Source of the DNA: Blasia pusilla
Taxonomy: Eukaryota
Direction of reading: 5' to 3'
Assembly: GCA_050084515.1 (NCBI GenBank)
Contig: CM114271.1
Location: 3,782,001 to 3,846,000, forward strand
Length of the DNA: 64,000 nt
The position numbers and the translations under genes are program-made. This document shows positions 1 to 64,000 of this stretch, in pieces; position 1 is the stretch's first letter, and each line of letters opens with the position of its first letter. The notes under the pieces are model-generated. The model worked only from the letters and a program-made list of their open reading frames with translations. It made no database searches and was not told the DNA's origin.

Positions 1-92
1 ATAGCACAGGGTGGACGAGGCTCGATATGCCGATGTAGATTGAGGAGTGGAGTTTTAGGCCGGGTGTGCCGGTTTTACTACTCTTTATTTTT
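1..92 (+). repeat. 3' part of the 5' terminal repeat (block B) of copy 1
   Basis: Matches 9032-9123 with 3 mismatches, then diverges into internal sequence without a following A block. Confidence 0.9.
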
Positions 93-1393
93 ACATGAGA
101 AAGATGTCAGGGGGCTGGTGGGAATTCGTTGTTTGCTGGTAGGCAAGCGAGTTGCCTTGGTCGGGAGCCCTTGGAGACGTGTGTGTGACGTTGTGTGTCA
201 TTTTTTCTGTTCGGAAGGCCGTGGGCGGAAGCGTTGTCCGTTTTTCTCAGATTTTGCTGGTGCGGATTGATGGGGGATAGCAGCCGAGTGTAGCGTGTGG
301 TGGGGCGTCGCGTGTACGCAAGTAAGGGTGTCGAGAGAGAAGGAAAGGGCAGGTTTGGGTCTTGCAGCCGCCGGGGGGCTGTCAAGTAAAGACGGCTAGG
401 TTAGGTTGCGAAGTTTAGGGTTAGGGCACGGACGGCAGGGCGCGGACAGCAGGGCGCGGACGGCGGACGGCAAGGGCGCGGACGCCGCGGGCCTCCCCCC
501 CCCCGCATTTAGGGCCCAAGGGCCGCATAGGGCAGCGGGCATAGTCGGTCGGACAGTTGTCGCATACGTGGTTGGCAGGACAGACGAGGTTAGTCGGGCG
601 AACGTGAGTGGAGATTTTCCAGACATGAGTGGGAGCCGACCAGGGTGAGTCACGTTACATACCGCGCGTGGGGATAGACAGAGAGGTTTGCACGACATGA
701 TGTTTTGGGGCGCGACAGGGTTGCGAGAGTTTACGATGGAGGGGCAGTGTGCATGATGCCGACGGGTTGTCCGCATCTGTTGACGGGAGGATCGACGTGT
801 TGGTCGAGGGGAGTGTTATGTGGCGGAGATTGTCATATCATGTGGAGGAGTGCATATTGACGGTGCAGCAGGTTGGAGGGCGTGATCAGGTTATCCATTC
901 GAGTCCCTTTTCCCGCACTTGTCGTGTATGATTGAGAGTGCTGGGTATCGGGTAGTAGCTGGTGCTAGATGGGTGCAGTGATGGTGACGAGTGTAGATTC
1001 TTTTCATGTGTAGCATGTTGGTGGATATACGGCGGTTGCCGAGTAGGGGTCGCGTTTATGACCCGAGAGTGTGTCGCTAGGTTAGGTGAGTCAGTTGGGA
1101 GGCTCATGGTGAGCCCGAGTGTTGAGCGTGCGTGAGGCCGGGTATGTCATCATGGGATTGATGTTAGCATAGGTGAGCTAGTGAGGCGTGTGGGAGACTC
1201 TCGGTGAGTCTGAGTGCTTGAGCGGGTGAGACAGGGTTTGTCATCACGACGTTCTTCCAGGGTTCGGAAGAACGGGGTAGTGCGAGCAGTGGTAGTGGTG
1301 TGACACGGAGTGGAGTGAGATACTGAGGGGTTACCACTGAGGAGCTCCCTCGACATCCATCTCGGATGGATCGTCATCATCGGACCGGGTCCG

Positions 1394-2480
1394 GTGACGA
1401 GATCACCGGCGAGAGATAGTAGTACTTGGCAGGAGATGGACGACATGGGCCATCGAGGCATGCGTCGTTTCTCGGGTGCAGTGGGCACCATCGACTTAGA
1501 TGATTTCATCCAGGAGTTTGACACATGGTGCGACTTCCAAGAGATACGGACCCCGACACGGTTCAACCCTTTCATGGCATGGAGGGGTTGTTCCAAAGAT
1601 TTGGAGGGTCCTCCGATGGATGACTACATGGAGTTTCGATCACTATATTCAGAGAGATCGATGCCTGGAGGATGTATTGGGCTCGGGGTATGTGTCCACT
1701 AGTGGTCGAGGCATATGATGGGATTGTGAGAGAGAGAGACCCACACCATCAGCCCGGAGACTAGATGGAGAGGAGGGCGGTGACACAAAGCGATGTGGCG
1801 AGACCTCGGTGGTAGGGGGCCACCGGCTTCAGCCCCACAATGGAGTTCTTCCGACGGTTGGGGAAGAGCTACCAGCGTGCACGCACCGACAAGCTGAAGA
1901 GTCTCAGGATTTTCAACGGCGATCGGGTGAGAGTGCGAGAGAGGCCTTCACATGCATGAGGAGGCTGATCATTGCTACGTTTGGAGGATCGAGGCGCGAT
2001 CGACCCAAAGATTGGCACTGGGTTCGGACCGAGAACTACGGAGGAGAGTCCGAGATGCGGTGATGATTCACGCCGAAGCCCACATTGAGGTGGTCTTTGA
2101 GTTGTCCGAGCGTATTGAGCTCAACATGAGTGAGGAGCAGGTAGTGACCGCTGGATTTTCTCGAGAGTCGACGGGTCCATTTAGCGGCGGTGACCCCACA
2201 AAGTGCCCACGAGCACCGATCACACGGAGCGGACGGTGTGCCTAGAGAGGGCGGGTACCGTGAGCCTATGAGGCAACGACCGCACCTACATATGTTGCCC
2301 GGCGAGGACCGATGTGGTCTTGTTGGGCGTGTGGAGGGGCCCATAGGCAGAGAGGCGCCCACAACATGGGAGAGGACCACAGCGCCTCCGATTGCGCGAG
2401 AGCCCAGAGGATGGCCCCACCACAGCACCAGTGTGACCATTGCCACGATATGGTCACACTAGGGATAGATGTTTTGACCT
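1394..2480 (+). pseudogene. gag: gag (capsid-like region plus CCHC zinc knuckle), frameshifted
   Basis: RFSGAVGTIDLDDFIQEFDTWC capsid-like segment. The knuckle CDHC.RYGHTRDRC is reconstructed across a frameshift at about 2430-2475 and has a counterpart (CDYCERYGHTRARC) in copy 2 at about 53514-53555. Confidence 0.7.
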
Positions 2481-3019
2481 TTGCCAAGGGCACGCGTCAG
2501 AGGTAGGCCGAGGGCCTGGGGCGGCCGCCTGGAGGAGGTCGGGGAGTTCTTCTGGGCGTGGTGTAGAGGACCACCACCAGCCAGAGGAGATGGAGCAGAG
2601 CACGAGCCGGCACTTCTCTCACGATCGATCGGTTGGAGCGGAGGATTGCGCCATGCGATGATGCGGCTTAGGAAAACGGAGGCTGCGGCGCTAGTGTGAC
2701 TCGGTCTCTACCTCTTACCCCGACCCGGGTGAGATCTCTCCAATATGGGATTCATGTGTAGTGTAGCCAGGTTGAGGCGATTGCTGATGGTGACTCGGGG
2801 TGCTGCGAGAGGCACCGAGCCATCGAGAGGTGGAGTTGAGATTGACCCACCAGAGGGGACCGATGGGCGGCAGGCCAGGGTTCCACAGTCGTTCACATTG
2901 TCGGAGGCACTACACACACCATCGATGGTGCCTCGACGACCAGCGGTGCCTACAGTTCAGGCACCTACGTCGACGTCACGAGGAGTTGGAGTGAAAACTC
3001 CTATGCCGGCTCGAGTGGA

Positions 3020-3865
3020 GTGAAAACTCCTATGCCGGCTCGAGTGGAGTCAGTGTCGACTATAGTGTTGGAGGTGGCCACTAGAGTGAGTCAGACTCCG
3101 CTATTTTCCGCCTTAGAGTTGGCGACGTTGGGAGTTGGACCAGTGAGGTGTTCGGTTGGCCGCCACGCGTTGTGTGAGCATGGAGAGATGACTGCTTCTT
3201 GTTCAGAGGTAGTTGAGGAGGTGGTGGACTTGCCCTCAGAGCCGGTGCTTGGGACGTTCCCCACAGAGTCATGGCATGCGGCGGCGGCGAAGTTGGTAGA
3301 TATGCCAGCTCGACCGGCCATAGAGCGAGCAATGGTGACACCTGGAGTAGTGTTACTGGATAACCGAGTTGGATTATTTTGCTTGGTTAGTCCGACGGGG
3401 ACAGTATACCACCCGCAGTGCGTCCTACTTGATTCGGGAGCGCAACCCTTGATGTTAGGGAAGGCGGCGTGTTTAGCGTTGGGATTACGGAAGGCCGACA
3501 TCGAGCCTTGTCCCTTCGAGATACAGACCTCGATTGTGTGCGTATCACCCACTCAGTATATGACTCGACATGAGATTGTTGTGAGAGTCCAGCCAGAGCA
3601 TGCGACGGATAGTGCTATGGTGCGCACACGTGCGATTACGACACCGGTGAGTAAATGCGATGTGTTGGTGGGGAGTACAGTGTTATATCCCCTAGGATTC
3701 ATCCTTGACTTCTGGGAGGAGACCGTTGCTTATCGGCCAGGATGGCGGCTAGGTGACGGTCGGATGAGTCAGTTACCTGTGCAGTTTGCGGGACGAGGTG
3801 GTCGATCACGAGGCGAGTCTGTGACCACGTTGGCGGCTTTCACAGGTAGTGTTAGCTGGCCATGA
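3020..3865 (+). pseudogene. pol: pol: retropepsin-like aspartic protease region
   Basis: VLLDSGAQPLML catalytic motif and downstream CDVLVG; homologous VLLDSGVQPVML in copy 2. Confidence 0.85.
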
Positions 3866-4146
3866 GAGTTGTTGGAGGGGAACGCACATGCGGAGGATGT
3901 CCTAGTAGCGGATAGTCCCAGGGAGAGACAGGCCATGGCGGGTGTCTCTTCCCATGTTAGCGATGCCTCTTCACCATTATGGGGTACGACTCGAGAGCTA
4001 CAGAGGAGTGCCGACGACCTCGTGAGGCAGGCGTGGAGTCATGTTTTTATCCCAGAGCAGCGAGAGTCACGTGGCGATCGGGCTCTTGGAGTGGAGACGA
4101 TGACCCCACTAGATACCACACCTGTTGTGTGGCAGTGCCCAGAGGA

Positions 4147-5085
4147 GGGTGTTAGGGTGTTAGATCTCTTTGGAGGGATTAGCACCGGATTGGCGGCCAT
4201 ATTGCAGGCAGGCATACGGGTGCATTAGTACCTTTATGTGGAGAGAGATGAGACCGCACGGCGAGTATCATTACGTCACGTGGCAAGATTGGTCCAGAGG
4301 TATCATGAGTTGTTGTCGGTATCTGCAGTACGGGGATACCAGCATACGCTACCCGCCGACATATCTTTGGTGGGGGCGCAGGATCTGGATAGAGTTGGCA
4401 CCATTCATTTGGTGATTGCTGGATGGCCATGTCAGGGTCATTCATCAGCTGGCCGAGGATTTGGATTGCAGGATCCGAGGTCAGGGATGTTTTGGGAGAT
4501 GCTGCGAGTAGTACGACACTTGCAGCAGAGTCAGATATGTTCTCCAACGTACATTTTGGAGAACCTGCCGTTGTTGGGAGATATTCGTGCACGTGTGATG
4601 ACGAGTGTACATCAGGTGAGGTCCTGGTTGGGACCGGCTGTGTTGTTAGATGCAGCGAGAGTTGGGTCACGTGCCCATCGTCCACAACTATGGTGGACGA
4701 ACCTGATACCATCAGAGGTACTGAGTCGAGCCTACAGTGGAGTCCAGAGAGCACCACATCTCACGGTGGATGCTATTTTGGACTCAGGGCGTCGATCTCA
4801 GGTGGTGACACGCGATGATAGACCACCATTGGCCACGGCCAATAGGGTGGGGGAGTTGAGGGCAGCCTTACCTACGTTGGTGAGCTTCCCAGCATCCCAT
4901 GCCTTTCGTCAAGGAGGACCAGGCATGATTTGGGATGAGGTGACCGGAGTATTGGAGGAGCCTACAGCAGATGAGCGCGAGCGCGCCATGGGGTTCACTA
5001 CCGGTACTACGGCGGTGCCAGGGATGACTGAGGCATCACGGAGACAGGTGTTGGGGCAGGCGATGGACCTCAACTGTCTCACATG
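4147..5085 (+). pseudogene. C5 cytosine DNA methyltransferase domain (DNMT3/DRM-like) within pol; one internal stop at 4226
   Basis: Motif I VLDLFGGI (about 4157-4180), II YVERD, IV IAGWPCQG (PC at 4427-4432), VI ILENL, VIII AHRPQLWWTNL, IX ERERAMGF, X RRQVLGQAM, in canonical non-permuted order and in the same frame as the protease. Confidence 0.92.
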
Positions 5086-5529
5086 GATAGTGAGCCTAGG
5101 TATGGCTGAGCAGAGACGGATGCGAGTGTCATCCATGCCGTCACGTCCACGAGTTGGACCACTGCCTACAGGGTCTGTATAGGCATTGGCTGGGGGCGAG
5201 ACGAGGAGAGATAGGCACCCATGGACTTCCTGGGACGTCGTTCGAGCAGAGAGTGTGAAGGCGGCTAGAGTAGCACATGTTCATTTTTTGGATGTGGAGC
5301 ATGGTGTAGGAGGTCGAGTGGAATGGTCATTATGGAGGTGGCTAGGGTTGCTACATAGCAACCAAAGCCGGAGGTTGCGTCCTCTCCGAGTGAGGTCACG
5401 ATGGAGACTTAGGAGCCTGTGATAGGTCTCAAGTTGATAGGAGGAGAGCGACGGCGAGTTCATAGGTTTCTGAGAGGGCATGTCAGTTGTTTTGCCTTTA
5501 GTATGAGAGACTTGGGTACGCTGAAGGGT

Positions 5530-6830
5530 CCCGGGATACGGATTGAGTTGGCTAGTGATACGCCGATCTTTCGTTGACCCTACAGGTATTCTGATATGGA
5601 ACGAGCCTTGATTCAGAGCAGGAGTCAGGACTTGTGGAGTTATCACATGGGGAGTATGCATCTGCCACAGTCATGCTGGCGAAGAAGGATATGTATGGCA
5701 ATTAGACGGATAGGCGGATGTGTGGAGATTACCGTCCTATCAACCAACAGACGAGGTCAGATCGGTATGCCATGCCTACTCCTGAGGAGATCTTTGATGC
5801 GGTAGGGCATGCAAAGATCTTCAGTACTTCAGATCTCCGTGCTGGCTATCATCAGCTTCCTATCAGGTTGGAGGACAGGGAGAAGACAACATTCTGGGGG
5901 ATAGATCGGTTTGGGAGAGATTGCTTGTATCAGTGGCGGTTCTTACCATTTGGGTTGAAGAACGCGCTTGCGGAGTTTCAGAGAGTGATGGATAGGATTC
6001 TGGCTGGCTTGGATTTTGTACGATGTTACATAGATGATATTCTTATCTTCAGTTCCACGGTTGAGGAGCATGAGCGACACTTGGAGGAGGTGTTTCGGCG
6101 ATTGCAGTTACATGGACTGAAGTTACATCCAGGCAAGTGCAGATTCTTTCAGGAGCAGATTGAGTACTTGGGACACACCATATACCCGAGTGGGTTAGGC
6201 GTTCAGTAGACGAAGGTAGAGGCTATTGCGCAGATTCCACGCCCTACAGATGTGAGTCGAGTCCGAGCATTTCTTGGACTGGCGAACTTCTATCGACGGT
6301 ATGTCAAGGGTTTTAGTGCGATCGCAAAGTCTTTGACCTTGTTGACGAGACTTGATCAGGTGTGGTTGTGGGGAGATGATCAGGAGTGAGCATTTCAGGA
6401 GCTCAAGGACAGGTTGACGTCCTCACCCATTTTACAGAGACCAGTTAGGGGTCGCCCATTCCAGTTACATACGGATTGGAGCATGTTGGGTCTAGGAGTA
6501 GTGCTTACTCAGAGGGATGACGAGGAGAGGGAGTTCGTTGTGGCTTACGCGAGTTGATCGAACAACATTGTAGAGGCAAAGTACAGCTCCTACGAGGGAG
6601 AGTGCTTGGCTGCAGTGTGGGCCGTGGCACATTTTAGGTGCTATTTATTCGGCAACCCTTTCACACTTATCACTGATCATCAGCCGTTGAGGTAGTTGAT
6701 GGAGTCCGACAAGCTTACGGGAAAGCTTGCCAGGTGGGCTCTATTACTACAGGAGTATGAGTTTGAGGTGGTTCATAGGGCAGGTCGGCTGAACCAGGAT
6801 GCGGATGGGTTGAGTCGTAACCCATGTCCG
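5530..6830 (+). pseudogene. pol: pol: reverse transcriptase and RNase H, with stops and frameshifts
   Basis: RMCGDYRPIN, DLRAGYHQL, PFGLKNA, YIDDILIF, KLHPGKC, YLGH; RNase [44 protein letters not shown]. Confidence 0.95.
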
Positions 6831-7169
6831 AGTCAGAGAGACGACATTGGAGCTCGATGGCACGGAGAGAGTGATGAGGAGATGGTGCCGGGTTGGCATG
6901 CATCTGCCTATCTTTGTTGGTTGACTATGGCAGGTCAGCCACAGGTGATGACTCCAGTGGTGGGATTGGATGATGAGTCTTTGGATCCGGAGGTTAGTGA
7001 GGAGGCGACAGGTGGTCGTGATATCCATGACGACGTGGAGGTTGTGGACTTCTTGCGCACCTTTGGCGTCATTGCGAAAGTACTGATGAGTCTTTGGGAG
7101 CGGATCGGATCCTGAGAGAGCCAAGAGGTTCGGTGGGAGGGACTCACATTTTGCGGGTATGGGGAGATG

Positions 7170-8453
7170 GTAGGATACGAGTGGTACCTCATCCTTCCCA
7201 GCGAGCACGTGTAGTGCGACATGCCCATGAGGAGTTGGGACATTTCGGAGTAAAGCGCATTTACGCCTTACTCCAGGTTGAGATCGGTGGCGCGGCATGC
7301 ATCTGGGTACAACGATTTGTGGCAGATGTATGGTATGTGACAGAGTGCGAGCATCCTTCAATGCTCCCACTCGCAGATTACATCCTTTGCCGATTATGGG
7401 TTTAGGTTATCGGTGGAGTTTAGACTTTGCGGGACCTTTGCCATTGTGGGCGTCATCATAGGTGCGTGTTGGTCATGGTGAAGCATTTCTCCAAGTGGAT
7501 AGAGTTGGTGGCACTACCGGACAAAGCGGCGAGGAACGGCTTATGCGTTTCTAGATCGTGTGCTTAGTCACTTTGGTGCACCGGCAGAGGTGTTGACCGA
7601 CAGAGTACCGAGTTCGGGGGAGAGTTTCAGGCCTTGTGTGATCAAAGGCCGATAGATCACCGCACCACGTCGAGGATCATCCTGAGGCGGATGGATTGGC
7701 GGAGAGAGTGGTACAGACGGTGAAGAGAGGATTGCGCAAGTATGGCTTGCAGCGGGGACAGTTGAGGGAGTGGGACCTCTGAGTTGCCATGGTTGGCTAT
7801 GGGTTATCGCTTTAGTCGGCAGGCATCATTGGCGTCATTTTCACCGTACTTTTTGCTCTTTGGGAGAGAGCCGATTTACTGCAGCGATTCGACGTAACAT
7901 GGCGGAGGTGTTAGATCTGGATGATCCGGATGTGTGGGTGCAAGCATGTTCTCAGAGGGCAGAAGTTTTTCGTAGAGTTATGCCTATGGCCTTTGAGAAC
8001 TTAGCTATTGCCCAGCATAGAGATACATTGAGGTCCGCGACCATTCGTGGAGGAGGTTATCATCCAGGGGTTAGGAGGTTTCATCCTGGAGATTACGTGT
8101 ATTTACAGCAAGCGGCACCCACGACGCTAGATGTCACTGCAGGGCGCACTATCCTACGTGTGCGCGAGGTATTACCGACCGGAGTCCTCATGTTGGAGGG
8201 ACGAGATGGTATGGTTTGGAAGGATCATGTGCGCAATTGTGCGCCATGTCATCTTCCGAACGTAGATGGGATGGTGGATCCAAGCTTGGCAGTAGTACCT
8301 GCAGGCTTGAGGTGTATGTTGTGCGGATCTGCGAGGGGTGCAGCCACCATGTTGGTATGTGATGGTTGTTCTCAAGGGTGGCATATGTCATGTCTGACCC
8401 CCCCTCTTGATGTGGTTCCCACGGGACGATGGATGTGTCCAAGATGTGTATAG
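7170..8453 (+). pseudogene. pol: pol: integrase (HHCC plus rve core) with C-terminal PHD finger
   Basis: AHEELGHFG...C.VC, WSLDFAGPL, EHFSKWIELVAL, FGAPAEVLTD, HPEADGLAERVVQTVK; C-terminal CMLC...MLVCDGCSQGWHMSCLTPPL..VPTGRWMCPRC. Confidence 0.9.
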
Positions 8454-8529
8454 GGTAGTAGGTCATGTCAGAGAGATGTGATATTTTCTATCTGGAGTTA
8501 GGGGGATCCAACTGCCAGCTAGGGGGGCG

Positions 8530-9261
8530 GTTGTGTGATCTCCATGTATATGTATGAGTTTATTTTTGTACATGTGTGGATCGACCCGTGTGTGGGGAAG
8601 ATCGATGTTGTGTGGTGTAGATGTGACGAGCGATGTATGTTGTGTAGCGATATGTATGCGCACGACAACTGTCACATCTGAGTAGCCGATAGGCCGAGAT
8701 CTATCGTTTATAGGGCGTAGGAGCCAACGGACTATCTTGAGTGTAACTTTGTCCCACAGTGTCGGATGAGGTTGAGGATAGGTCCATTGTGTCAGGAACG
8801 TTGTTTCTGACGACTTTCATGTTGAGGTCTTTTACATCCGGGTGACTTGTTGACCAGGTCATCTGCCCCTGGTAACCTGTGCGCGCAGGTTACCAAGGGA
8901 AGGGATATTCTTAGGGGAAGAGCCTTTTGGCTCTTTCCAACCTATATAAGAGAGGAACATGTTGGGCCGTTGGAGCACCTCCCTTGTAGGTGTGTGAGCT
9001 AGGAGTAGGGTGCTAGCGTCCGGATTCCTTGATAGCACAAGGTGGACGAGGCTCAATATGCCGATGTAGATTGAGGAGTGGAGTTTTAGGCCGGGTGTGC
9101 CGTTTTTACTACTCTTTATTTTTGTTGTGTGATCTCCATGTATATGTATGAGTTTATTTTTTTACATGTGTGGATCGACCCGTGTGTGGGGAAGATCGAT
9201 GTTGTGTGGTGTAGATGTGACGAGCGATGTATGTTGTGTAGCGATATGTATGCGCACGACA
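8530..9261 (+). repeat. 3' terminal repeat complex of copy 1: A(8530-8667)-ac-B(8670-9123)-A(9124-9261)
   Basis: The two 138-bp A copies differ at 1 position. B starts TGTC and A ends GACA. A purine run AGGGGGG at 8521-8527 precedes A, and a TATA-like CTATATAAG lies at about 8942 in B. Confidence 0.92.
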
Positions 9262-25782: not shown

Positions 25783-28700
25783 TCAGTTCACGGAGTGTGC
25801 ATCTGACTTGAGTATGCGATCAGCTATTTCCTGGAATGATTTCACCTCCTTCTTCCAGAGCCTGCATCACTTGGTCCATTCTTATCGTTAGAATTCTTTT
25901 CATTCATATTCTGATAATGACTAGGACCTCAAGCTAATGCCAAGCTCAGTCCAAGATACTAGCAGATGAAGACATGTGATCTAAAAAACCATTTGACAGA
26001 CTCTCTGTATTTTTTTCATGTTGTAAGAGCAACAGAGAAAGGACAATAGCGTAAGAACCAGAGAATAACCAGAATCTATCAAAACTACAACAAGTGGCAC
26101 AGGTGGGAGACATCTGGGTTTTTGAGACTGACCATGAATCTATGCCAATGGCCTGTGCACCTTTCTTGTCTGCAGTGGGATCATCTCCGACATGGACTGT
26201 TTGTCTTGCATCTACATTTAGCTGATCTGATAAACAGAGAACCGCAAAGTTTATATCACACTCAAAAATCCTGTGCCAGGTTTGATAGCACGAAAAAATA
26301 AATCGAATTCCTGGAGGACCCGTGCACAACAACAAAATTTAATCGATAGTTAACAAAAGAGGCATCGATAACAGCACATGTAGCCATTTTACTGAACAGT
26401 AGTTCACATGTGAATGGATGAAACTTTACTTACTGAGAGCCGCTTCAAAGATCTGAGGGGCAGGTTTCTCATAACCAATCTCAGATGAGACTATAATAGC
26501 ATCAAATCTGAACAGAAAACTATCCACTATGAGAGGAATCCAACAAATAATAATCTAATAACCAATGGACCTTTAAGTTGGCCATGAAGATATTCTCTTC
26601 ATGGTCGTTATATTGCATAATCAGAGAAAACAGAGTTGGCGAAAATGCAACATGAAAACAAAGTTAATTAAGCTAATGTCACAAGGCTTGATCTATTAGC
26701 TACTTTAATTGGAGAAGCCACAGTGAACATACCATGTTTCATTGGGGACAAGTTCCCATGAAAGAGTTGCATTTTCCAGACATATTAGAAGTTATAATCA
26801 CAAATTATGAAGAATACTCATGGACTTCCACCATCAAGGTTATTGATGAAATAGGAAATGGAACCTTACAAGCTAGACACCTGCAGGTCTTGTAGAACTG
26901 TCCGTAATCGAGAGTCGAAATTTGATACCACAGCAAGTTTAACTGATCCCACCCCAGAAACATTTCAGATACTATATCCACATTCATACACAAGGACTAC
27001 TATCTAGATGGGCTTTGTTCACATGTACAGTAACAGATGCTGTCGGTGTCGTGATCAGCTGGAGATTCGAACCTTTAGCAAGCGACGACTTCTTAGTTCA
27101 TGCAACCTAGTAGCATCTTTGGAGTGAAATTCAGATAAGTTCTTTAATTTCCTACCTCCAGCATCTCGCAGCTGGACCAGTGCCTCCTCAGCACCAGCAG
27201 AAACTCTCCATGCATCTCCCTTTGCAAAGTGCTGGTTTCAGCACATCACATCATCACCAAGACTGTTAGCTACTACGTGCCGATTCATCTTTGTCTTGAT
27301 ATGCCTAATTGCTCTCAAGAATCTGTGAGTAGATACCCTCACAAACACATTGCCATATAGGTGGGAACCAACAGTAGGTAAGTAGGTAATGGTTTCTGTA
27401 GTTGTAATCAGTTTTGAGATTCGAGTATGCTCTCTGAAGTTTGTCTCCTTCGCTACTGTCTCTGTAGCGACACATATTAGCTTTGCAGTTTGCCATGATC
27501 ATTTTGTTTCCAACAGGTTTGACATCTTTCTAGAGGAGGATGAGTTCAACACACTTGAGGACACGAGCAGTGAGGGGATTATGCCACCATTACCTGGTAC
27601 AATTCCTCAAAGTAGGTCTCATTGCTACAACCGGTTGCCATTGCCACAGCATATCTCCAAAAAGGCCTTCCATCTCCCTGAAAATGAAACCCACATGGCA
27701 TGTATAATCATGGAATAAAACTAGGAAACTGGCAGGCCAAGAACTCTTTTTGAACTTAGCTGTGCAGACATTTTTTCGAGCCACATATCTCTTGAGCGGT
27801 TCATGGCACCGATGTGATCAGGACAAAGAAGATGAGAGTGATGTTGCACCTCATAACGTAGTCGTTCAGGCCATGGCTCAGCAAAAGCTTTCTTAAAGCC
27901 CTTCTTGATATCATCTGGTGTGGTCTTCACACCTGCACCCAGGCACACCCCTTAGCTCCACTGCCCAGAAGTTTCTGCTACGTGCAGAGTCAGAACAACT
28001 TGTCGCATTCCCATGGCTACAAGTGTTAACACCCGTGCATCACAAACTGCTGAACTCATAAAAACTCCCGCCCATTTGTTGGTGTCTTCAAACCAAAGAC
28101 AAGAAGCCAGGAGGTCAATTTTGAGAGAAAGAGGTCATAACACTCAGGGGAAACAGACTGTGAATTCCAGCTTTCTTACAACGCTTTCTAGTCAGTCAGA
28201 TCTCGGACTCTGGAATTCTGCTCTTGAAGCTTATGATAGCAAGCACTGCTGAATGTAAACATGTCTCCTAACAAAGTTTCAGAGAGGATTCACTTCCAAG
28301 TTATGCGGGCAATGAATTCAGTCAGCCACTCTCAACTCCATGCTCACAAGAACATTGGCTCACTAAAGCACGGAGAGAACCATGACAAGTACCATACTTC
28401 ACCCCGATGGCAGCATAAATATCCGCAACTGGTTTGGATGTCTCCAGCAAAGTGCCTCCCACGTCCACCAACAAGGCTCCGTAAGCCGGCCCACCTTCAA
28501 AATCAGCACCAGAGACCAAGAATATGCTGCAAAGTGAAAAGAAATTGAGCGCAGGACACCCTAGACCCTTCATTCTCTCCATCCACCTCAGAAACCCAAA
28601 TTTGACGAATACGAGACCTTACAGCTTGTACTTATTCTATGGTATTGTTTATCGATCACCCAGCAGGCGGTCCCAATCATCTCAGCATTGGAGAAATTGC

Positions 28701-30219
28701 AAGGTCAAACGAATCAGTTTTATACAGTTTCCAGGTAAGAAGGTCATCTGTGAGATTTTAGACCCCATCATTGAGTGCTTTGATCTCCTTCCGATGACCC
28801 ATACGTGAAAGAAAGCAGCACTTCAACGCTTAAAATCGATTGACATTGCACAATCTCGTGGCTGAATGCAAGAAAACTACCCAACAATGCACAGCAATTC
28901 CACCCAAGAGTGAGGCATTCCCCCACCTTCAGAACCACTCCGCTCACCAAGAACTAGTAGGCTCCCTCAGATTGCCAAGGACTTTTCCTTATCAACTTCA
29001 TCGAACATCTTGGAAAATGTTGAACAGAAAGAAAAGAAGAGAGAGACTGTGCTCATGAAGTAGTGCCTGTCGTAGCCTTGCGACCATAGACCCCGCGCCC
29101 TGGTTGGACGGTGCTTGAGACTGGGATGGGTGTAGAGAGAGAAGCAAGTGAAGAAGGTACCATATAAGAGGAGGGAGACACTCTCATATAGTGTGAGTGC
29201 TGACCAAACAACGTGTTTGTGCGGAGCTTCCAAGTGTCAACCAAGAAACTCTTCACCACACCATCTACTTTACCTGATTGGGATCCCCAATAGACATTAC
29301 TTACCAGTGCAGCAGCTTTGGGCAATGAATCAAGGCTACTAAATGTGTTGAACAATTCTCGTGTTACCAGCTTAGCAATATCAGCATCTGCTCTTGCTCT
29401 GTGTGTTGTGAATTTTGCGCAGGAGACCAAGTAATGACTTGATGTTTCATCCCCATCGTCACACAAGGCGCAAGAGTTTAGTTGTGTTCCCATCCTGCTT
29501 TTCTTATGGTTCAATGGGATTGCCCCCCGTTCTGAACTTGAACTTGAGCCGGGTTCCCAAGCAAGGGGTTCCCCGCAAATAGTTCTTCAGTTCTGCCTTC
29601 TCAGGATATACCGTCAAAAGAGAGAGGTCAGACATTTTCATGGCTTCCTCCATGCTGTTCTGCTGTGAGCGTTTGCCCACTGCTTTGGTTATGGTATCCA
29701 CGAATGCTTTCTCATCTTGTTCCCACAGTTCAGGCCCTGCTGGGAGCTTGGATGCTTGCACAATCTCTTGAACCTTTTTCGTCCAAGATTTGGCCTGCTT
29801 TACGGGTCTTCTTTGGGTCCAAGTTTTCCCCATCACCTCTTTAGGATAGCGATGGGAGTCCATTGTCTCCAGCTGCCTCCACCATTTCAACTTGGCGATG
29901 TCACGTCTAGCCTCCAAGGGTTCCACACCAAGTTCTCATCTCACACCAACTCGGGCTGTTCGTGAGGAAGTTGACATCATACCCCGAAACGCCTTCCGCT
30001 GCACAGCTTCAAGCCTGTCCCTTTGTTTGGTGTTGGCATCCCACACTGCTGCCCCATATTCCCAAGAAGAGAGAGAGAGAGAGAGAGAGAATGTTCACCT
30101 GAAGCACGTGCACACTGAGTTGCGGGCCTGAGGGCGGATCGGAGCAGGCACGAAGATCGATGGGAGGGTGTGCGGCATGACTGCTTCAGAAACAAGGCTC
30201 TGGATGATAGAAGCGCCAT
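25783..30219 (-). CDS. HAD-superfamily hydrolase, HDHD3-like, with N-terminal organellar transit-like peptide (9 exons)
   Basis: Motif I LLVDVGGTL (about 28440-28475), AFAEPWPERLRYE, GDGRPFW, motif II VVSNFDSRL, III EIGYEKPAPQIF, IV VHVGDD...DKKGA. Exon 1 is 30099-30219 and the stop is at 25783-25785. Confidence 0.92.
29046..30065 (-). mobile_element. 5'-truncated non-LTR retrotransposon (RTE-X-like ORF2 C-terminus) in intron 1 of the HAD gene
   Basis: EYGAAVWDAN...RLEAVQRKAFR...ELGVEPLEARRDIAKLKWW thumb-like region, then LKFKFRTG and a CALC...ETSSHYLVSC zinc-finger-like motif, with stops. It begins abruptly next to (GA)n at 30066-30090. The clade call is tentative. Confidence 0.82.
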
Positions 30220-30249
30220 CTTAACGACGACCCTCACCTTCAAATCACT

Positions 30250-30388
30250 GAGATGGACCCCCACACACTATCCTGATTCAACTGCAGCAACAAGTGCAAG
30301 CGACAATAAGTAAATGGATGGCGAGAACCGGAGACTTGAGATGAACCCCAACACGCTATCGTGATTCAACTGCAGCAACAAGTGCAAG
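30250..30388. repeat. Direct duplication (about 51 bp, 88-bp period) upstream of the HAD start codon
   Basis: gagatg.acccc.acac.ctatc.tgattcaactgcagcaacaagtgcaag at 30250 and 30338. Confidence 0.8.
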
Positions 30389-52500: not shown

Positions 52501-55239
52501 TCCTATTACATATTCCTCTTCTCCATAAAAGATTTTTTTCCTTAATTTTCCATTTAATTTTGACCATTCTCTTTTAATTTTTTCAATATTTTTTGTAATT
52601 ATTTTAAAAAAGTTAAAAAATTATGGCCTAATTCATATTTTTATCCTCCATAAAAAAAAAATTTCCTTATTTTCTCATTTATTTTGACTATTCTCTTTTC
52701 ATTTTTTCAATATTTTATATAATTATTTTAAAAATTCTGGCCTACTAAATATTTCTCTTCTCCATATTCTCCCAATCTTACTTCACTTCTCTTCTCAAGT
52801 TTAATTTATAGTTTCGGGGTGTGTCATGTAGATGGCGAGTGTCGATAGATTATTATTGAACATGGAGAGACGACCACTTGGTGTTGTCACAAATACACCA
52901 ATTATGCCACAAATTTCAGGGATCTAAATCAAAGTACCAAAGAATACCTCTCTTATGTAACCACCTTTGTTTTATGCCTTATTTCCATTTCCACAATGAC
53001 ACCTTCCATTCCAATGTTTTCTATGATTATACTTTAAATATGCAATCTCCCCAATTGTTGCACGGTTGTCCTATCCATCAAACCTTACGGATTTGCGTGA
53101 CTTAGGAAGATTGATGCATGCAAAGGCACAACAAAAAAGACGTGCCCATCGCAAGGAAATATTAGCACAACAAACATAAGTTGAAGATGAACCCCTCCCC
53201 GAAACATCTTCAACATAAGTTAATTATTGACAATCATTTACCATGTCCAAATTTACACTACATAATCTCCGCGTTAATTTAATTTTCTTTGTTCTTAAGA
53301 TTCATTTCATGTTCCAGACTTCCCATTCCATCGAATCCTGTCAATGTATGTGATTTCCGAAAGGTTCTATGCAGCAAAACGCAAAAATGAAACCTTGCTA
53401 TTTGTGTTGAGCAGGTGATGGAGCCCATCACCAACGCAAATGCACTCGTCAGGGTCATGGATGCATGCCTCAACCTAGAGGAGGAGATGGTGCTGCACCA
53501 AGAGGTCATTAGTGTGACTATTGTGAGAGGTACGGTCACACACGCGCTAGGTGTTTTAGCTTACACCTTGAGTTACGTCCGAACCGAGGGCCAGAGAGGA
53601 CACCAGAGCAAGTTGCTGGTACGGGTGGGCTAGAGGTCGTGCACCATGTGGTCCTGTTTGGGGACGAGGAGTTGGATTCACCCAAGGGGATGGTGGAGTT
53701 GCTCGTGGAGGAGGTAGAGTCCCACCACCTAGACGCGGTGAGGGAGACGCCAAGCGTGAGGTTGGGATGGCTGCTTAGATATAGCAGCTACAGCAACACA
53801 TTGCCGTTATGGCATTGAGGTTACCCGATGTCGGATCCGTGGCATCAACGTCTTATGGACAAGCCAGAGATATGGAGGGTCCTAGTTGGATGTGCGGGGT
53901 TGCCCAGATGGAGGCCGCCGCAATTATTACACATGGAGCAGCCGCAGAGTTGGATCCACAACGAGGGGAAGCTAGAAAACAGACCAGGCTTCCTCAATCA
54001 TTCACATTGTCTAAGGCGATGATGACTCCATCGATGGGTCCTGATCAGATTTCTTGGAGAGTTGGTGATGTTGTTGGTGTGCAGGCATGGAGGGCAATGA
54101 GAGAAGCGAGTGCGACGACTCCTATTGCTGATGCTCAGGAGGAGCATGTGTCAAGCACGATGGTGGGGGCGGCCATGATGGTGTACCGCCGAGGTCCGCT
54201 GTTTTGTGCTTCCTATGTTATGACGTTAGGAGATATGCCCGCCGAGGTTTTCCGGTTGGCTGCTACGCTAAGTGAGCGTGGAGATGGTACACCTGCATCA
54301 CGCTCAGGGATGATTGCTGAGGAGGTGATGGATCTGCCCTTCGAGCCTATGCTCGGGCTGTCCACGTCAAATTCATGGCAGGCTCCGGCTATTAGGATGG
54401 CGAAGATGCTGGCTAGACCAGCGATAGAGCGTGCCATGGCTTCTCCTAGTGTTGTGTTCTTGGATAATCGGGGAGAGGTCTTCGAGTTGGAGAGTCCAAA
54501 AGGTAGAGTTTTTAGTCCACAGCCTGTCTTGTTGGATTCGGGAGTGCAACCCGTGATGCTGGGGAAAGTGGCATTCAAAGGATTGGGCTTGACGAGAGCC
54601 GATGTGGAGCGTTGTCCATTCCGAATATAGACATCCTTGGGTAGAGCGTACCACAGAGTATATCACCCAACAAGAGGTTGTGGTGAGGATTCGCGTAGGA
54701 CATCCTACATATGAGTCCGTGGTGCACGCCAAGGCGATCGTGAGTGATGCAGAGTCCTACGACGTCTTGGTTGGTGAAGCAGTGTTGTACCCGATGGGTT
54801 TTCCCTGGATTATTGGGAGGAGTCAGTGTCCTACAGACCAGGTTGGCAGTCCCCTCATGGACGAATTTGTTCATTACCCGTTCGATTCACATGTGGAGTG
54901 ATCGAGCGACGGCCAGGAGGGATGGCGACTTTCGAAGCATTTAATAACGCCATCACGTGACCTTCTGATTTGATTGAGGGGCATGTCCATGTAGAGGACA
55001 CCCTTGTGTCTCATACTTCTAGGGAGAGAAGTGTTATGGTAGCCGCATCATTCCGTAAAGGAGAGTTGTCGCTGTGGGGCTCGAGTGAGGAGCTCCTACG
55101 TTTATCTGATGAGCATGTGCAGACGGTGTGGAGTGAGGCGTTTGCACCAAAGTGTGACAAGTGAGAGGAACCCGAGGTAGTCAGAAGTGCTACTATGATC
55201 CCTTTGAACACCACCCTGATTGTATGGTGCATCCTAGAG

Positions 55240-56170
55240 GAGGGTATTTGCGTGTTGGATCTCTTTGGAGGAATCAACACTGGTTTAGTTGTTGTTTTGC
55301 AGCCAAGAGTGCGCGTGCAACAATACCTATACGTTGAGATTGATGATGTTGCAAGGCGCACTTCACTTCACCATGTGGCGTAGTTACGCCTCTACTTTTC
55401 CGACTTGTTTTCTGCCTCCACCATCTAGGGATACTTGAGCTCTCTACCGAGGGACATTTCATTGCTGGGGATGGAGGACTTGGAGGAGGTAGGGACCATA
55501 GATTTGGTCATTGCTGGTTGGTTGTGTGATGGCCAATCGAGTGTTGGACGAGGTAGCGGGTTGGCTGACACTTGATCCATGTTGTTTTGGGAGATGATAT
55601 GGATCTTGCGACACTTGCAGGAACATCAGTCCCATTCTCCAACATACATTCTGGAGAATGTGCCAATTTTGGGCGATTCGAGGTCCCGCGTGGTGACAAG
55701 TGCACATTAGGTGCCTGCATGGATTGGCCCGGAAGTGTTGTTGGATGCAACGAGTGTAGGTTCATGGGCACATCGCCCACGCCTTTGGTGGACCAACTTG
55801 GTGGCACGTGAGGTTTTGCGGAGGGCATATGCGAGAGTGGAGCGCCCCTCCCATTTTTTGGTGGATTCTATTCTGGATCCAGGTTGTCAATCACAGGAAA
55901 TACGACACGATCATTGACCCCCATTGACTATGGTCAAGTGGATAATCATTCCACGAGCAGCCTTTCTCAAATTGGTGAGTTTTCTTGCTTCCTATGCATT
56001 CAAGGAGCCCGAACCAGGCTTAGTTTGGGATGACCAAGTACAACGATTGGTGGAGCCCAATGCCGATGAGTGAGAGCAAGCGATGGGATTCCCCACAGGA
56101 GTGATCGTAGTACCATCACTATCAGAGGCATTAGGACGTCATGTCTTGGGTTAGACGATGGACCTGAACT
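55240..56170 (+). pseudogene. C5 cytosine methyltransferase domain of copy 2, degenerate
   Basis: VLDLFGGI, YVEID, IAGWLCDG (PCQ decayed, Cys kept), ILENV, AHRPRLWWTNL, E*EQAMGF, RHVLG*TMDL; same frame as the downstream RT ORFs. Confidence 0.9.
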
Positions 56171-59100
56171 ACTGGACATGGATTTTCAGCTTAGGAGTAG
56201 TTGAGCCACGTCGTTTGACGATGCGATGGATCACAACTGTTGCGTTGGTGAGCCCCATGCTTATCGAGACTGTTGAGGCACTGGCTGGGGGCGAGACCCG
56301 ACGAGATCGACACACTAGGGGTGATTGGGAGATATACCCTTGGACTTATTAGGATGTTTTGTAGGTATGCCAAGAGATGATAGCAACATCATCGAGCGTG
56401 GTTTTAGGTACTACACGTGGAGGAGATCAAAGTTTGTAGTTGGCTGAAGGAGAGCATGGGTGCTCTATTGTCCAAGGCGGGGTTGCACCATAGCAACCAC
56501 CAACACCAGCGCCGCAGAGTCTTATCGTAGTCACGATGGAGACTTGGGAGCCAGATATGGGCCTTAAGTTGATGGGACGAGAGCGGCGCCAGATAGATCA
56601 ATTTCTGAGGAGTTATATGAATTTTTTTGCATTTAGCATGCATGATTTGGGTACACTAAAGGGTCCCGGCATCCACATTGAGTTGTTGAGCGACACGCCA
56701 ATCTTTTGACGACCCTACAGGTATAGTGACGTGGAGAGGGCTCTGATTGAGAGTAGGAGCCGAGACTTGGTTGGAGGAGGACTAGTGGAGATGTTGCATG
56801 GAGAGTATACATCTGCTACTGTCATGCCCGCCAAGAAGAATATGCATGGCAACTGGACAGATAGGCGGATGTGTGTAGATTATCGACCTATCAATCGACA
56901 CACAAATTCTAATAGGTATGGCATGCCCACCCCTGAGGAGATCTTTGATGCTATTGGGCATGCAAAGGTCTTCAATTCACTAGATCTTTGAGTTGGATAC
57001 CATCAGCTGCCTATCAGATTGGAGGATAGGCAGAAGACAATATTTTGGGGCATCGATCCTCACGGGAAGGATTGGTGGTTCTTACCATTTGGGTTAAAGA
57101 ATGTCCAAGGTGAGTTTCAGAGGGTCATTGATAGGATCTTGGCAGGTCTGGATTTTGCTAGGTGTTATATTGATGAGATCGTAGTCTTTAGCGCCACGAT
57201 TGAGGAGCATGAGTGACATCTAGGGGAGGTGTTTCGACGATTGCAGTTACATGAGTTGAAGCTACATCCACGCAAGTGCAAGTTCTTCTACCTACATATT
57301 GAGTACCTGGGTCATACAATATACCCAAGTGGCCTTAGTGTGCAACACACAAAGGTAGAGGCTATTTCAGGCATTCCACGCCCTACAGATGTGAGTCGAG
57401 TTCGTGCATTCATGGGATTGGCGAACTTCTATTGACGGTATATCAAGGGTTTCAATTTGATTGCAAAGCTGCTAACCTTGCTGACCAAGATGGATCAAGA
57501 GTGGTACTTGGGGAATAAGTAGGAGAGAGCATTTCAGCTCAAGGAAAATTTGACGTTTGCATCCATATTGAGAAGACCAATCAGGGGGCGTCCTTTCCAG
57601 TTGCATACTGATTGGAGCATGTTGGGGTTGGAGCCGTGCTCATCCAACATGACGATGATGGTAGAGAGTTTGTGGTGGCTTATGCTAGTTTCTCAAAAAA
57701 TGCTGGAGAGGCAAAGTATAGCTCGTATGAGGGTGAGTGCTTGGCTGCAGTGTGGGCTGTCGCACATTTCAGGTGTTATCTATTCGGCAACCCCTTTACC
57801 ATCAATACTGATCATCAGCCACTTAAGTGGTTGATGGAGTCCGACAAGCTTACAAGGAAGCTTGCAAGGTGGGCTCTTTTGTTGCAGGACTATGACTTCC
57901 AAGTGGTGCAAAGACATGGGATGCTCAACCAGGATGCACATGATTTGAGTCGTAACCCATGTCTGAATCAGTGAGATGCGACTGGAGCTTGTTCACATAG
58001 TGAGAGTGATGAGGAGTTGGTGCCAAGATGGCATGCGTCAGCCTAGTTGGGCTTGTTGGCTATGGAGAGCCAGATTGCGGAGTCTTCCATGGCGAGGTCT
58101 GATGGAGAGTCCTTAGATCCAGAGATTGGTGAGGAGACAAAAAATGGCCGAGATATTGATGATGATGGAGTAGTCTTGGAGTACCTATGTACTAGCAGTG
58201 TCGCGAGCACAATGGATGCTAGAGAGCGGGATCAGATCCTACAGCAAGCCAAACGGTTATGGTGGGAGGGGACCCATGTGTTGCGAGTTTGGGAGGATGG
58301 TAGAGTATGTATAGTGCCTCATCCTTCATAGAGAACGTGTTTGGTGCAAGGATTTGGGTCATTTTGGAGTGAATTGGACGTACAGCTTGCTCTAGATATA
58401 GTATTAGTGGTGAGGCATGTAGACTGACATTCAACAATTTATTGCCAGGTTTATGGTTTGTGATCGGGTTCAGGCATCGTTCAATGCTTCAACTTCACAG
58501 TTGCATCCACTTCTGATCATAGGTTTAGGTTATAGATGGAGTTTGGATTTTTCATGACCTTTACATTTGATGGAGGGCCATACTCGTTATGTGTTGCTGA
58601 TGGTCGAGCACTTCTTGAAGTGGATAGAGTTGGTTGTATTTCTTGACAAAGCGAGTGAAGGAGTAGCGTATGCCTTCCTAGATCAAATGCTAAGTCATTA
58701 CGTGCACCAGTTGAGGTATTGACAGACCAGGCTACGAAGTTTTGCGGGGAGTTTCAAGCCTTGTGTGATTAGACGCTGATCAACCACCCCACCACTTCGC
58801 GAGATCATCCAAAGGCGGATGGACTAGCGGAGAGGGTTGTGCAGACAGTGAAGAGAGGATTGCGCAAGTATGGCTTGCTGAGAGGTCAACTAGGAGATTG
58901 GGACCTTCAGTTGCCGTGGTTGGTGATGGGATACAGATTCAGCATGCAAGCATCCTTAGCGTCTTTCTCACCATACTTGCTACTTTATGGTCAAGAGCCA
59001 GATTTACCTGTGGCTATTCGTCGAGATATTGGTGAGGTGTTGAACCTTGATGAACCTGATGTATGTATGTGAGCATGTTCTCACAGGGTTGAGTTATTTT

Positions 59101-59382
59101 GGAGAGTGATGCCCATGGCGTTTGAGAACTTGGCGATTGCACAATATCGGGATACGTTGAGGTATGCGACTATTCGGGAAGGTGGTTATCGACCTACTAT
59201 CCGGAGGTTCCATAAGGGAGACTATGTCTACTTGCAGCAGACGGCAAGAGGGCGACTAACAATGGGACCACATGAGCACCCGGAATTTTTGCTCTTAGCG
59301 TCTGAGAGATGTAGGTCATGATAGGTAGGGATAGATGGCTATCTGGAATTAGAGGGACCTAACCATCGACAAGGAGGCAATC

Positions 59383-60167
59383 GGAGATATTTTGGTACTT
59401 CTCGCCTCTATGTTTGGGTGCCATGAGTTAGCATGGGATCGTGCATGTGTATGTGTGTGTTCGATGAGAGCGATGTATGTTGTGTAGCGATGTGTATGCG
59501 CACGACAACTGTCACGTCTTTTAGGATAGATCAGTCAGATCTAGTAGAGCGCCTTTGCAAGTAGTAGAGGACATGCTTAGGAGGTTGAGGATTGCCTATA
59601 GAGGCCCCAGGAAACTTGAGAGAGTAGGTTTCCCTTTCATTTCGGCTCATTTGGAACCATATTGAAAAACTTAATATTTGGGTAAATATCATTTTGGATA
59701 AATGCCATTTTGAATATATGATCAACTTTCTATTTTGGTAAGTGGCCCCTGATCTCCTATATCAAGTCAAGAGCCAATGAGGTGACTTGGGAGCATATGT
59801 TACCATGGAGAGAGCTTGGGGAAGGGGAGGGGTATACCTCAAGGAGGGAGAGCTTGAGAGCTCATTCTCTCTTTGTTGAACCTCTTGGCAGAAGGCATCG
59901 GAGCTATGGTCCCTTGTCTTGTGAGTTTAATCCAAGCCTCTCATTAGGAGAGTGGGTTTGGCTTGACACTGAGAGAGATATATGAGAGAGCGTACATGTG
60001 AGAGCTATGGTGTTGTGAGAGAGATTTGACCTTATTTTAATTGGAGATATTTTGGTACTTCTCGCCTCTATGTTTGGGTGCCATGAGTAAGCATAGGATC
60101 GTGCGTGTTTGTGTGTGTGTTTGGTGACAGCGATTTATCTTGTGTAACGATGTATATGCGCAAGACA
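59383..60167 (+). repeat. 3' terminal repeat complex of copy 2: A(59383-59507)-ac-B(59510-60042)-A(60043-60167)
   Basis: A 125-bp A block is repeated at a 660-bp offset; the junction cgcacgaca-ac-tgtcac is identical to that of copy 1. Confidence 0.92.
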
Positions 60168-60267
60168 AAGGAGTCAATTCTTGGTTCCACCAAGAAATAA
60201 ATAAAAATAAAATATAATTATCCCAATTATTACAACTTCTAATTTTCTTCCCCTTTTTGTTTGTAGT

Positions 60268-63379: not shown

Positions 63380-64000
63380 TGTCGTGCGCATACACATCGC
63401 TACACAACATACATCGTTGTCATCAAACATACACATAAACACACACGATCCCATGCTAACTCATGTCATCCATACACATAGGCGAGAAGTACCAAAATAT
63501 CTCCAATAAAGTAAGATCCAATCTCTCTCTACATCATCTCACACTATAGCTCTCAAAGGTGTGCACTCTCTCTCATGTCAAACCAAACGCACTCTCCTAA
63601 TGAGAGGCTTGGGTTACACTCACAAGGCAAGGGACCATAGCTCCGCCGTCTCATGTCAAGAGGTTCAACAAAGAGAGAATGAGCTCTCAAGCTTTCTCTC
63701 CTTGAGGTATACCCCTCCCCTCTCCCAAGCTCTCTCCATGGTAACCTATGCTTCCAAGTCACCTCCTTGGCTCTTGACCTGATGTAGGAGGTCAAGGGCC
63801 ACTTACCAAAAATAGAAAGTCAACAATCCCCAATATGGAAACTTACCCGAAATAGTAAGTTTATCTATATGGCTCCAAATGAGCCGAAACGAAGGGGAAA
63901 CCTGCTCTCTTAGGTTTCTCAGGGCCTCAACAGGTCATTCTCAACCTCCTAGGCGTGTCCTCCACTACTCGTGAAGACGCTCTGCTAGATCCCACCGATT
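63380..64000 (-). mobile_element. Terminal B-A repeat of a third copy (copy-2 subfamily) on the minus strand, continuing beyond the window
   Basis: 63380-63504 is the reverse complement of block A ending CGCACGACA; 63505-64000 is the reverse complement of block B (about 59530-60042). Confidence 0.92.

Follow-up and report, generated by a model that had tools for sequence, protein, structure and literature searches.

We analysed a 64-kb stretch of the genome of the liverwort Blasia pusilla (contig CM114271.1, positions 3,782,001 to 3,846,000 of the forward strand), called the window below, whose own positions serve as coordinates throughout. The window opens inside a retrotransposon that carries a DNMT3-like C5 cytosine methyltransferase (DNMT). 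This copy, element 1 (1–9261, its left end cut by the window), is a dead copy of a bryophyte Ty3/Gypsy-type retrotransposon family, and parts of two further copies lie in the same window (Table 1). According to Pfam and tblastn searches, the domains of element 1 are arranged in the order gag, aspartic protease, DNMT, reverse transcriptase (RT), RNase H, integrase and PHD finger. The frames that we followed contain 15 stops and several frame changes. Three of the stops lie ahead of the end of the DNMT domain and more stops and frame changes come further on, so that element 1 makes none of its proteins. No intact CCHC knuckle is left in its gag region, and its protease region has no Pfam match; the relatives match Asp_protease_2.

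Table 1. Parts of element 1 and the other copies of the family found in the window
Feature	Position	Strand	Evidence and remarks
Repeat A1, end	1..92	+	97% identical to 9032-9123; A1 start outside the window
Decayed gag region	1436..2443	+	Several frames; tblastn with Marchantia protein P0123, residues 1-337
Aspartic protease region	3047..3862	+	Same frame as methyltransferase; LLDSGAQ active-site motif at 3425-3445
DNMT3-like C5 cytosine methyltransferase domain	4133..5110	+	PF00145; motifs I to X in normal order; internal stop at 4226-4228
ORF1/ORF2 boundary, TAG CAA CCA	5356..5364	+	Fits the type I readthrough context UAG-CARYYA
Reverse transcriptase	5622..6209	+	PF00078 (RVT_1), E 4.1e-30 on 5706-6209; tblastn
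RNase H, Gypsy/retrovirus type	6372..6758	+	PF17917 E 8.5e-33, PF17919 E 7.8e-31 (X-read translation); 3 in-frame stops
Integrase, zinc-binding H2C2 and catalytic core	7148..7876	+	Interrupted by stops and frame changes; tblastn with P0155, residues 1048-1293
PHD finger, C-terminal end of integrase open reading frame	8313..8447	+	PF00628, E 3.5e-11
Internal repeat B1	8530..8667	+	99% identical to 9124-9261
Repeat A2, end	9032..9123	+	97% identical to 1-92
Terminal repeat B2, 3' end of element 1	9124..9261	+	B sequence also ends elements 2 and 3
Element 2, more decayed copy of a different subfamily	53396..60168	+	DNMT core 55237-56205; B1 59379-59508; B2 60039-60168
Element 3, third copy, of which the 3' end (A2-B2) lies inside the window	63380..64000	-	82% identical to 59538-60167, reverse orientation

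The domain of element 1 is intronless and the coding sequence keeps one frame from the protease through the DNMT. Four stop-to-stop open reading frames (ORFs; 2846–3865, 3866–4228, 4229–5182 and 5183–5422) are separated by single stop codons at 3863, 4226 and 5180 with no frameshift between them, as had been noticed in an earlier reading of this DNA that used no database searches (the sequence-only reading). The same reading had placed the methyltransferase inside the pol polyprotein. Its position between protease and RT holds, while its membership of one polyprotein with RT is only approximately right: the RT of element 1 lies in other frames than the DNMT (5413–5634, then 5622–7061, by tblastn), and a conserved in-frame stop separates DNMT from RT in intact relatives.

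The methyltransferase motifs I, II, IV, VI, VIII, IX and X follow one another along 4160–5074 in non-permuted order: LDLFGGIS at 4160–4183, YLYVE at 4229–4243, AGWPCQG at 4418–4438, ILENLP at 4553–4570, SRAHRPQLWWTNL at 4667–4705, ERERAMGF at 4973–4996 and RRQVLGQAMDLN at 5039–5074. Every motif quoted in the sequence-only reading, which had claimed a complete set, was located there, and the profile search that it proposed gives a PF00145 match above the cut-off (E 3.2e-8, 33.8 bits against 22). Compared with the PDB as a single sequence, the domain scores best with DNMT3A (9.3e-8), ahead of DRM2 (2.8e-4) and M.HhaI (5e-3). A 12-sequence profile gives the same order: DNMT3A 3e-24, DNMT3C 6.9e-23 and DNMT3B 3.6e-22, then tobacco DRM 2.9e-13, DRM2 1.2e-10, and DNMT2 and HhaI at about 2.5e-7. 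An AlphaFold model built on a 30-sequence alignment (predicted local distance difference test, pLDDT, 89.5; predicted template modelling score, pTM, 0.89) has only DNMT3A, 3B or 3C chains among its best 50 Foldseek matches; the top one is 6f57_D of DNMT3A (E 4.6e-19, TM 0.83 on the target, about 20% identity). Judged by sequence, profile and predicted fold, the domain is nearest to DNMT3A/B/C, ahead of DRM and bacterial enzymes. A Gypsy-type element with a non-permuted DNMT3-like domain, as the earlier reading described it, thus agrees with the order of Pfam domains, the order of motifs and all three comparisons. Neither the window ORFs nor the relatives scanned have a Pfam match to PWWP or ADD, so the predicted enzyme consists of the catalytic domain only. 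Across 30 sequences its catalytic motifs show little or no variation.

The methyltransferase is not a peculiarity of element 1. Element 2, which has 30 in-frame stops, is 74.5% identical to element 1 in DNA (5395–8061 against 56530–59190, blastn), carries the methyltransferase (tblastn) and has the B1...B2 arrangement. A search with the domain for proteins of near its own length returned 222 relatives, and those named by organism come from Calypogeia, Sphagnum, Marchantia, Riccia and one Obscuribacterales metagenome-assembled genome (MAG). Among 58 longer proteins, 20 are named and all of these are from bryophytes (17 from Marchantia polymorpha, 1 from Calypogeia and 2 from Sphagnum); the longer relatives have the architecture gag-protease-DNMT or protease-DNMT-RT-RNase H. 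Metagenome contigs yielded 241 pattern matches, of which 116 were confirmed as carrying the domain. Finally, 580 cluster representatives (among 1.84 billion searched) match at E <= 1e-30; the best 150 of them are all at 1.6e-78 or better and 77 of these 150 have at least 1000 residues. A tree built from 43 domains puts the two copies of the window into one clade with all 10 named bryophyte rows, at 99% support. The two window copies do not pair with each other in that tree, and therefore two old lineages coexist in the genome. The sequence-only reading had allowed for a domain missing from most of the family or captured only once; instead it is present in element 2, in 17 Marchantia gene models, in Calypogeia and Sphagnum and in 116 metagenome stretches. 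The domain is a module of the whole family, maintained by selection, and did not get there by a chance insertion.

Constraint on the domain can be estimated from the two window copies. Between elements 1 and 2 the proportions of nonsynonymous and synonymous differences (pN and pS) in the DNMT core are 0.26 and 0.65, which corresponds to a nonsynonymous-to-synonymous rate ratio (omega) of 0.21, with synonymous sites near saturation. For the other parts pN and pS are 0.27 and 0.59 (integrase), 0.37 and 0.73 (protease) and 0.115 and 0.61 (RT); the DNMT is constrained similarly to integrase and protease and less than RT. The comparison of rates on the domain had been suggested by the sequence-only reading, and its result goes the way that reading expected: among 50 copies omega is 1 or more in 0 of 858 usable pairs (362 pairs were dropped as saturated). 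Comparisons of dN and dS between a window copy and metagenome relatives are saturated in 4 of the 7 pairs tried and have dS >3 in 2 more. According to these values, the methyltransferase domain has been under purifying selection.

Intact relatives show how the coding region of the family is divided. In two of them, L050 and L054, ORF1 and ORF2 lie in one frame with a single TAG between them. ORF1 (gag, protease and DNMT) has 1369 residues in L050 and 728 in L054, and ORF2 (RT, RNase H and integrase) has 1047 residues in each. The six bases after the TAG are CAG TTA in L050, CAA TCA in L054 and CAA CCA in another relative, L002, and the homologous site of element 2 (56491–56499) has the same nine bases as element 1. 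The sequence TAG plus CARYYA, which is the type I readthrough consensus as given in the part of PMC5382211 consulted, thus occupies the corresponding position of 5 elements (elements 1 and 2 of the window, L002, L050 and L054). Two others deviate by one base, L005 with TAG CAA CCC and L006 with TAA CAA CCC. The coding sequence runs on in frame past the stop with a conserved ...TWEP... motif, and the Marchantia model P0123 likewise ends after the methyltransferase. If the stop is leaky, DNMT would therefore be made with every gag-protease chain, and RT and integrase only on readthrough. The layout of the family is A, ORF1 (gag, protease, DNMT), in-frame UAG in a leaky context, ORF2 (RT, RNase H, integrase, PHD finger) and B-A-B.

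The repeats around the coding region are split direct repeats. Self-comparison of the window gives A1-coding-B1-A2-B2 for element 1; A2 may start directly after B1, at 8668. Classical Ty3/Gypsy long terminal repeats (LTRs) are absent from it: the sequence from 93 on is unlike B, and B1 precedes A2. The complete A1...B1-A2-B2 pattern is found in one relative, L032. Among 7 metagenome loci that extend for 4.5 kb or more to each side, A1/A2 is present in 4, and 1 of those 4 also has B1/B2. Split repeats of this kind are shared with DIRS elements, which have a tyrosine recombinase. We found no match to the tyrosine recombinase PF00589 in window ORFs or in relatives scanned, and the H2C2 and rve integrase domains are present instead. 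The order RT, RNase H and integrase is that of the Gypsy type (PF00078, PF17917, PF17919, PF17921).

Among solved structures, the PHD finger that closes the integrase ORF is nearest to PHF12, CHD4, KDM5A/B, DPF3, PHF21A, AIRE and UHRF1. Several of these read the unmodified histone H3 tail. We also considered that this finger could be a captured ADD domain of DNMT3, and rejected this, as the best 60 of 89 structure matches contain no DNMT3 or ATRX chain. A PHD-tagged integrase is common to two architectures of DNMT-bearing elements. In the second one the order is RT-RNase H-DNMT-integrase-PHD, with the methyltransferase between RNase H and integrase. This order was found in 3 of 7 proteins or ORFs and 4 of 6 long representatives scanned with Pfam, and in 6 of these 7 cases the integrase is followed by a PHD finger. 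The second architecture is represented by L076, L078, P0165, P0257, P0261, P0271 and P0277, and in P0165 it is visible in the sequence itself. The DNMT domains of the second architecture are 35–42% identical to the window domain. The domain either moved within one element backbone or was taken up twice.

Copies of the family are transcribed. From three RNA runs labelled with the same species 1932 reads were aligned to element 1, with a depth of 1–7 over gag to DNMT and 9–23 over RT to integrase. The first mate is mostly on the minus strand; in the bin 5891–6200 the depth is 16–23 on one strand and <1.6 on the other. In most stranded libraries a first mate on the minus strand means sense RNA. 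Only 48 of the 1932 reads are at least 99% alike to element 1 and more than half of the reads run into unlike sequence, and therefore the reads come from sibling copies and not from element 1. At positions 5704, 6207 and 6694, inside stops of element 1, nearly all reads carry another letter, so that the copies giving rise to the transcripts are more intact there. The family is thus transcribed in sense from sibling copies in the same species.

Taken together, we consider it likely that element 1 is a dead bryophyte Ty3/Gypsy-type element of a family with a DNMT3-like enzyme in ORF1, a leaky UAG behind it and a PHD-tagged integrase, and that the enzyme serves self-methylation. Placed upstream of a leaky stop, the DNMT would be part of every gag-protease product and much more abundant than RT or integrase. 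The protease would probably cut it free inside the particle, and it would probably methylate the element's own new DNA, either as complementary DNA (cDNA) or at integration. Insertion would probably be directed by the PHD finger of the integrase towards chromatin in which the histone H3 tail is unmodified. The element would likely benefit in that its new copies look host-methylated on entry, or are quiet and tolerated insertions. Release by the protease, packaging and methylation of the new cDNA, the mechanism proposed in the sequence-only reading, had already been put forward as a speculation by de Mendoza et al. (2018; PMC5890265, cited here and below from parts of its text and legends), the methylation of cDNA for DIRS elements.

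A number of results weigh against this interpretation. In element 1 itself the integrase is poorly marked: the H2C2 match PF17921 (E 1.6e-4) has 22.2 bits against a cut-off of 25.5, and the rve core is weak (E 0.15, below the Pfam cut-off), while it is clear in relatives. The repeat layout is documented by one complete relative, L032, and partial cases, and element 2 has no detectable A1. We infer leaky termination at the UAG from context and frame only, and motif counts give it no support. TAGCARYYA occurs downstream of the domain in 9 of 62 loci as compared to 22 of 55 upstream controls, where a single conserved out-of-frame site that related copies have in common accounts for the matches; in the whole window there are 6 matches with 3.8 expected. 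Most of the copies found are decayed: only 8 of 50 DNMT cores are without stops, and an ORF of at least 1000 residues surrounds the domain in just 3 of the 80 loci. Owing to much neutral decay, omega has a median of 0.565 over the 50 copies, and pS between the window copies is 0.54–0.73, near saturation, so that the omega values are rough. Finally, in the only published assay of the nearest known element, the methyltransferase domain of KnitGypsy-Dnmt3 from Klebsormidium produced no methylation in yeast, a result that its authors called inconclusive (PMC5890265).

That last result also suits a different role for an enzyme of the same identity. It could act on RNA or on host DNA near the insertion, or have no catalytic function and serve within the gag-protease product for DNA binding or as a chaperone. 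An RNA substrate for some element-borne DNMTs was raised in the 2018 discussion (PMC5890265), and placement in ORF1 with gag would also be suitable for a structural or nucleic-acid-binding protein. On the other hand, the 30 sequences compared retain the catalytic Cys of motif IV, the ENV-type motif VI and motifs VIII to X. Moreover, the predicted fold best matches DNA-bound DNMT3 structures, and the RNA enzymes of DNMT2 type are about 17 orders of magnitude worse. We regard such a role as unlikely.

Three explanations of another kind concern the origin of the sequence, and the evidence leaves very little room for any of them. The domain is DNMT3-like and without introns, as it would be if a host DNMT3 gene or its processed pseudogene had landed in one Gypsy copy. 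Such a single capture is contradicted by the family-wide presence of the domain, which is in frame with the protease, recurs in a second copy that is only 74% identical in DNA, sits at the same position in liverworts and mosses under purifying selection, and has only about 20% identity to the solved (mammalian) DNMT3 structures; we consider it highly improbable. Slightly less so, though still very improbable, is that the bryophyte sequences are host genes domesticated from the element and that the window holds pseudogenes of such a gene. The Marchantia annotations do list them as gene models and RNA reads exist, but the sequences are multi-copy, flanked by the element's repeats and joined to RT, RNase H and integrase, most of them are decayed, and three copies stand inside a single 64-kb window. 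A bacterial origin of the methyltransferase is suggested by database labels: P0031 (49% identity) is called 'MAG TPA: DNA cytosine methyltransferase [Candidatus Obscuribacterales bacterium]', and many JGI matches are named site-specific DNA-cytosine methylase. However, the contig of P0031 has 2410 bases, one protein in its 90% cluster combines aspartic protease and methyltransferase within 1359 residues, L050, its near-twin, is a complete element that includes RT, RNase H and integrase, and bacterial enzymes rank far below DNMT3 by profile and fold. We reject this origin as having next to no chance of being right: P0031 is a fragment of a eukaryotic retrotransposon and its label is a binning artefact.

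The kind of element described here is already known. The first of it, KnitGypsy-Dnmt3 from the green alga Klebsormidium nitens, was reported by de Mendoza et al. in 2018 (PMC5890265), as the sequence-only reading had correctly stated. Like our family, it has a Gypsy-type set of domains, an intronless non-permuted DNMT3-like domain in the coding region and A-coding-B-A-B repeats (legend of Fig. 4c), and it is under purifying selection (Ka/Ks below 0.2, as compared to omega of 0.21 here between two subfamilies). It differs in its host, a charophyte alga and not a land plant; the comparison is with the published description. No protein named as Klebsormidium was among the relatives returned by our protein searches. 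SymbioDIRS-Dnmt3 of Symbiodinium also has a DNMT3-like domain in a retrotransposon with A-coding-B-A-B repeats, according to the legends of the same paper, and its enzyme was shown to perform de novo CG methylation in yeast (PMC5890265). It is a DIRS element with a tyrosine recombinase, in contrast to the H2C2 and rve integrase without a PF00589 match in our family.

Among methyltransferases of hosts, DNMT3A/3B/3C are the closest by sequence, profile and fold. They share the order of motifs I to X and a small target-recognition region, and differ in that the domain described here is only about 20% identical to them, is without PWWP or ADD and is embedded in a gag-protease polyprotein. Plant DRM enzymes are distant relatives of the DNMT3 group. 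Their motifs are permuted, with VI–X before I–V, unlike the normal order here; only the N-terminal half of the window domain aligns with DRM (query 45–171 to chain 228–348), and the scores are at least 11 orders of magnitude weaker. Chromoviruses are Gypsy elements with a chromodomain at the C-terminus of the integrase. Our family resembles them in having a chromatin reader fused to the integrase end, which is a PHD finger here and not a chromodomain.

The sequence-only reading knew of no description from land plants, and the literature that we searched likewise contained no description of DNMT-carrying retrotransposons in bryophytes or land plants, although the supplements of PMC5890265 may list bryophyte cases. 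In the main text of a survey of plant LTR elements (PMC6317226) the words methyltransferase, PHD, Marchantia and Klebsormidium do not occur, and element-borne DNMTs are not mentioned in the consulted passages of a Marchantia review (PMC9516144), PMC11982613 and PMC12885004. The family in land plants, with a liverwort host, appears to be new. The same appears true of two arrangements: DNMT sharing ORF1 with gag and protease and followed by a conserved in-frame UAG in readthrough context, and DNMT between RNase H and integrase. Readthrough placement, PHD-tagged integrase and the second architecture have no mention in the portions of the literature texts examined. The degree of novelty was nevertheless overrated by the sequence-only reading, as the element is of the same kind as KnitGypsy-Dnmt3 and dozens of bryophyte copies are already in public protein sets, where they are entered as hypothetical proteins. 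A wider view would be that one old streptophyte lineage of DNMT-bearing split-repeat Gypsy elements spans charophytes, liverworts and mosses and both architectures. In bryophytes the DNMT before a leaky UAG would be made in gag-like amounts and coat the cDNA of the particle with methylation, a PHD finger reading the unmodified H3 tail would steer the integrase, and self-silencing or camouflage would have lasted over hundreds of millions of years. This is possible, and we put it forward tentatively, with more doubt than belief.

Cytosine methylation is the host's main weapon against transposons, and a transposon with its own methyltransferase is therefore a paradox. The paradox was left unexplained in the 2018 report; no activity of the Klebsormidium enzyme was seen in yeast, and manipulating the alga is difficult. 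Elements of this kind are abundant in liverworts and mosses, Marchantia polymorpha has at least 17 gene models of them and the species of the window has sense transcripts, which moves the question to plants with good genetics and methylome tools. As the family is present and transcribed in liverworts, with the transformable model Marchantia polymorpha among them, what DNMTs carried by elements do can be tested there directly. The choice of mechanisms to be tested is narrowed by two points of anatomy: the DNMT lies upstream of a leaky stop and should therefore be made in gag-like amounts, and the integrase carries a PHD finger. There is also a consequence for annotation: domains of such elements inflate 'DNMT3' gene counts in bryophyte genomes, and at least one has been mislabelled as bacterial in a metagenome bin.

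Some further observations concern the decay of the copies and their surroundings. Elements 1 and 2 decay far more by point stops than by insertions or deletions, and all 45 of their in-frame stops are TAG or TGA, with no TAA. Their coding strand is C-poor: GC skew is +0.25 in element 1 and +0.21 in element 2, as compared to −0.09 in the host stretch 26000–42000. Of the relatives, L050 and L054 have a skew of +0.11 to +0.13, and elements of the second architecture one of about 0. The TAG and TGA stops and the C-poor strand would fit C-to-T change at methylated sites, which leaves the strand asymmetry unexplained.

Just after element 1 there is a repeat array (11578–12703) with units of about 210–320 bases that are 81–97% alike, and a tRNA-Asn (GTT) gene adjoins it (12809–12882, minus strand). 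ORFs at 29053–29935 on the minus strand have a weak match to PF13966, the RT zinc-binding region (E 5.4e-4, below the cut-off), and are probably the remnant of a non-LTR retrotransposon. The exons of a choline-transporter-like host gene lie at 35530–39304 on the minus strand, and its relatives match PF04515. One of these exons (36518–37135, minus strand) is closest to liverwort proteins, at 76% identity to Marchantia, 75% and 73% to Riccia and 74% to Calypogeia, with 60–66% for Ginkgo, fern and moss proteins. By this gene, too, the host is a liverwort, and one without a close relationship to Marchantia, Riccia or Calypogeia. Directly after the end of element 2 stands a PIF1-like helicase fragment (60211–60630, plus strand; PF05970, E 3.4e-29), which is probably part of a Helitron-type element. 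The stretch 42001–46000 is very AT-rich, with a GC content of 0.25–0.26 as compared to 0.30–0.58 in the rest of the window.

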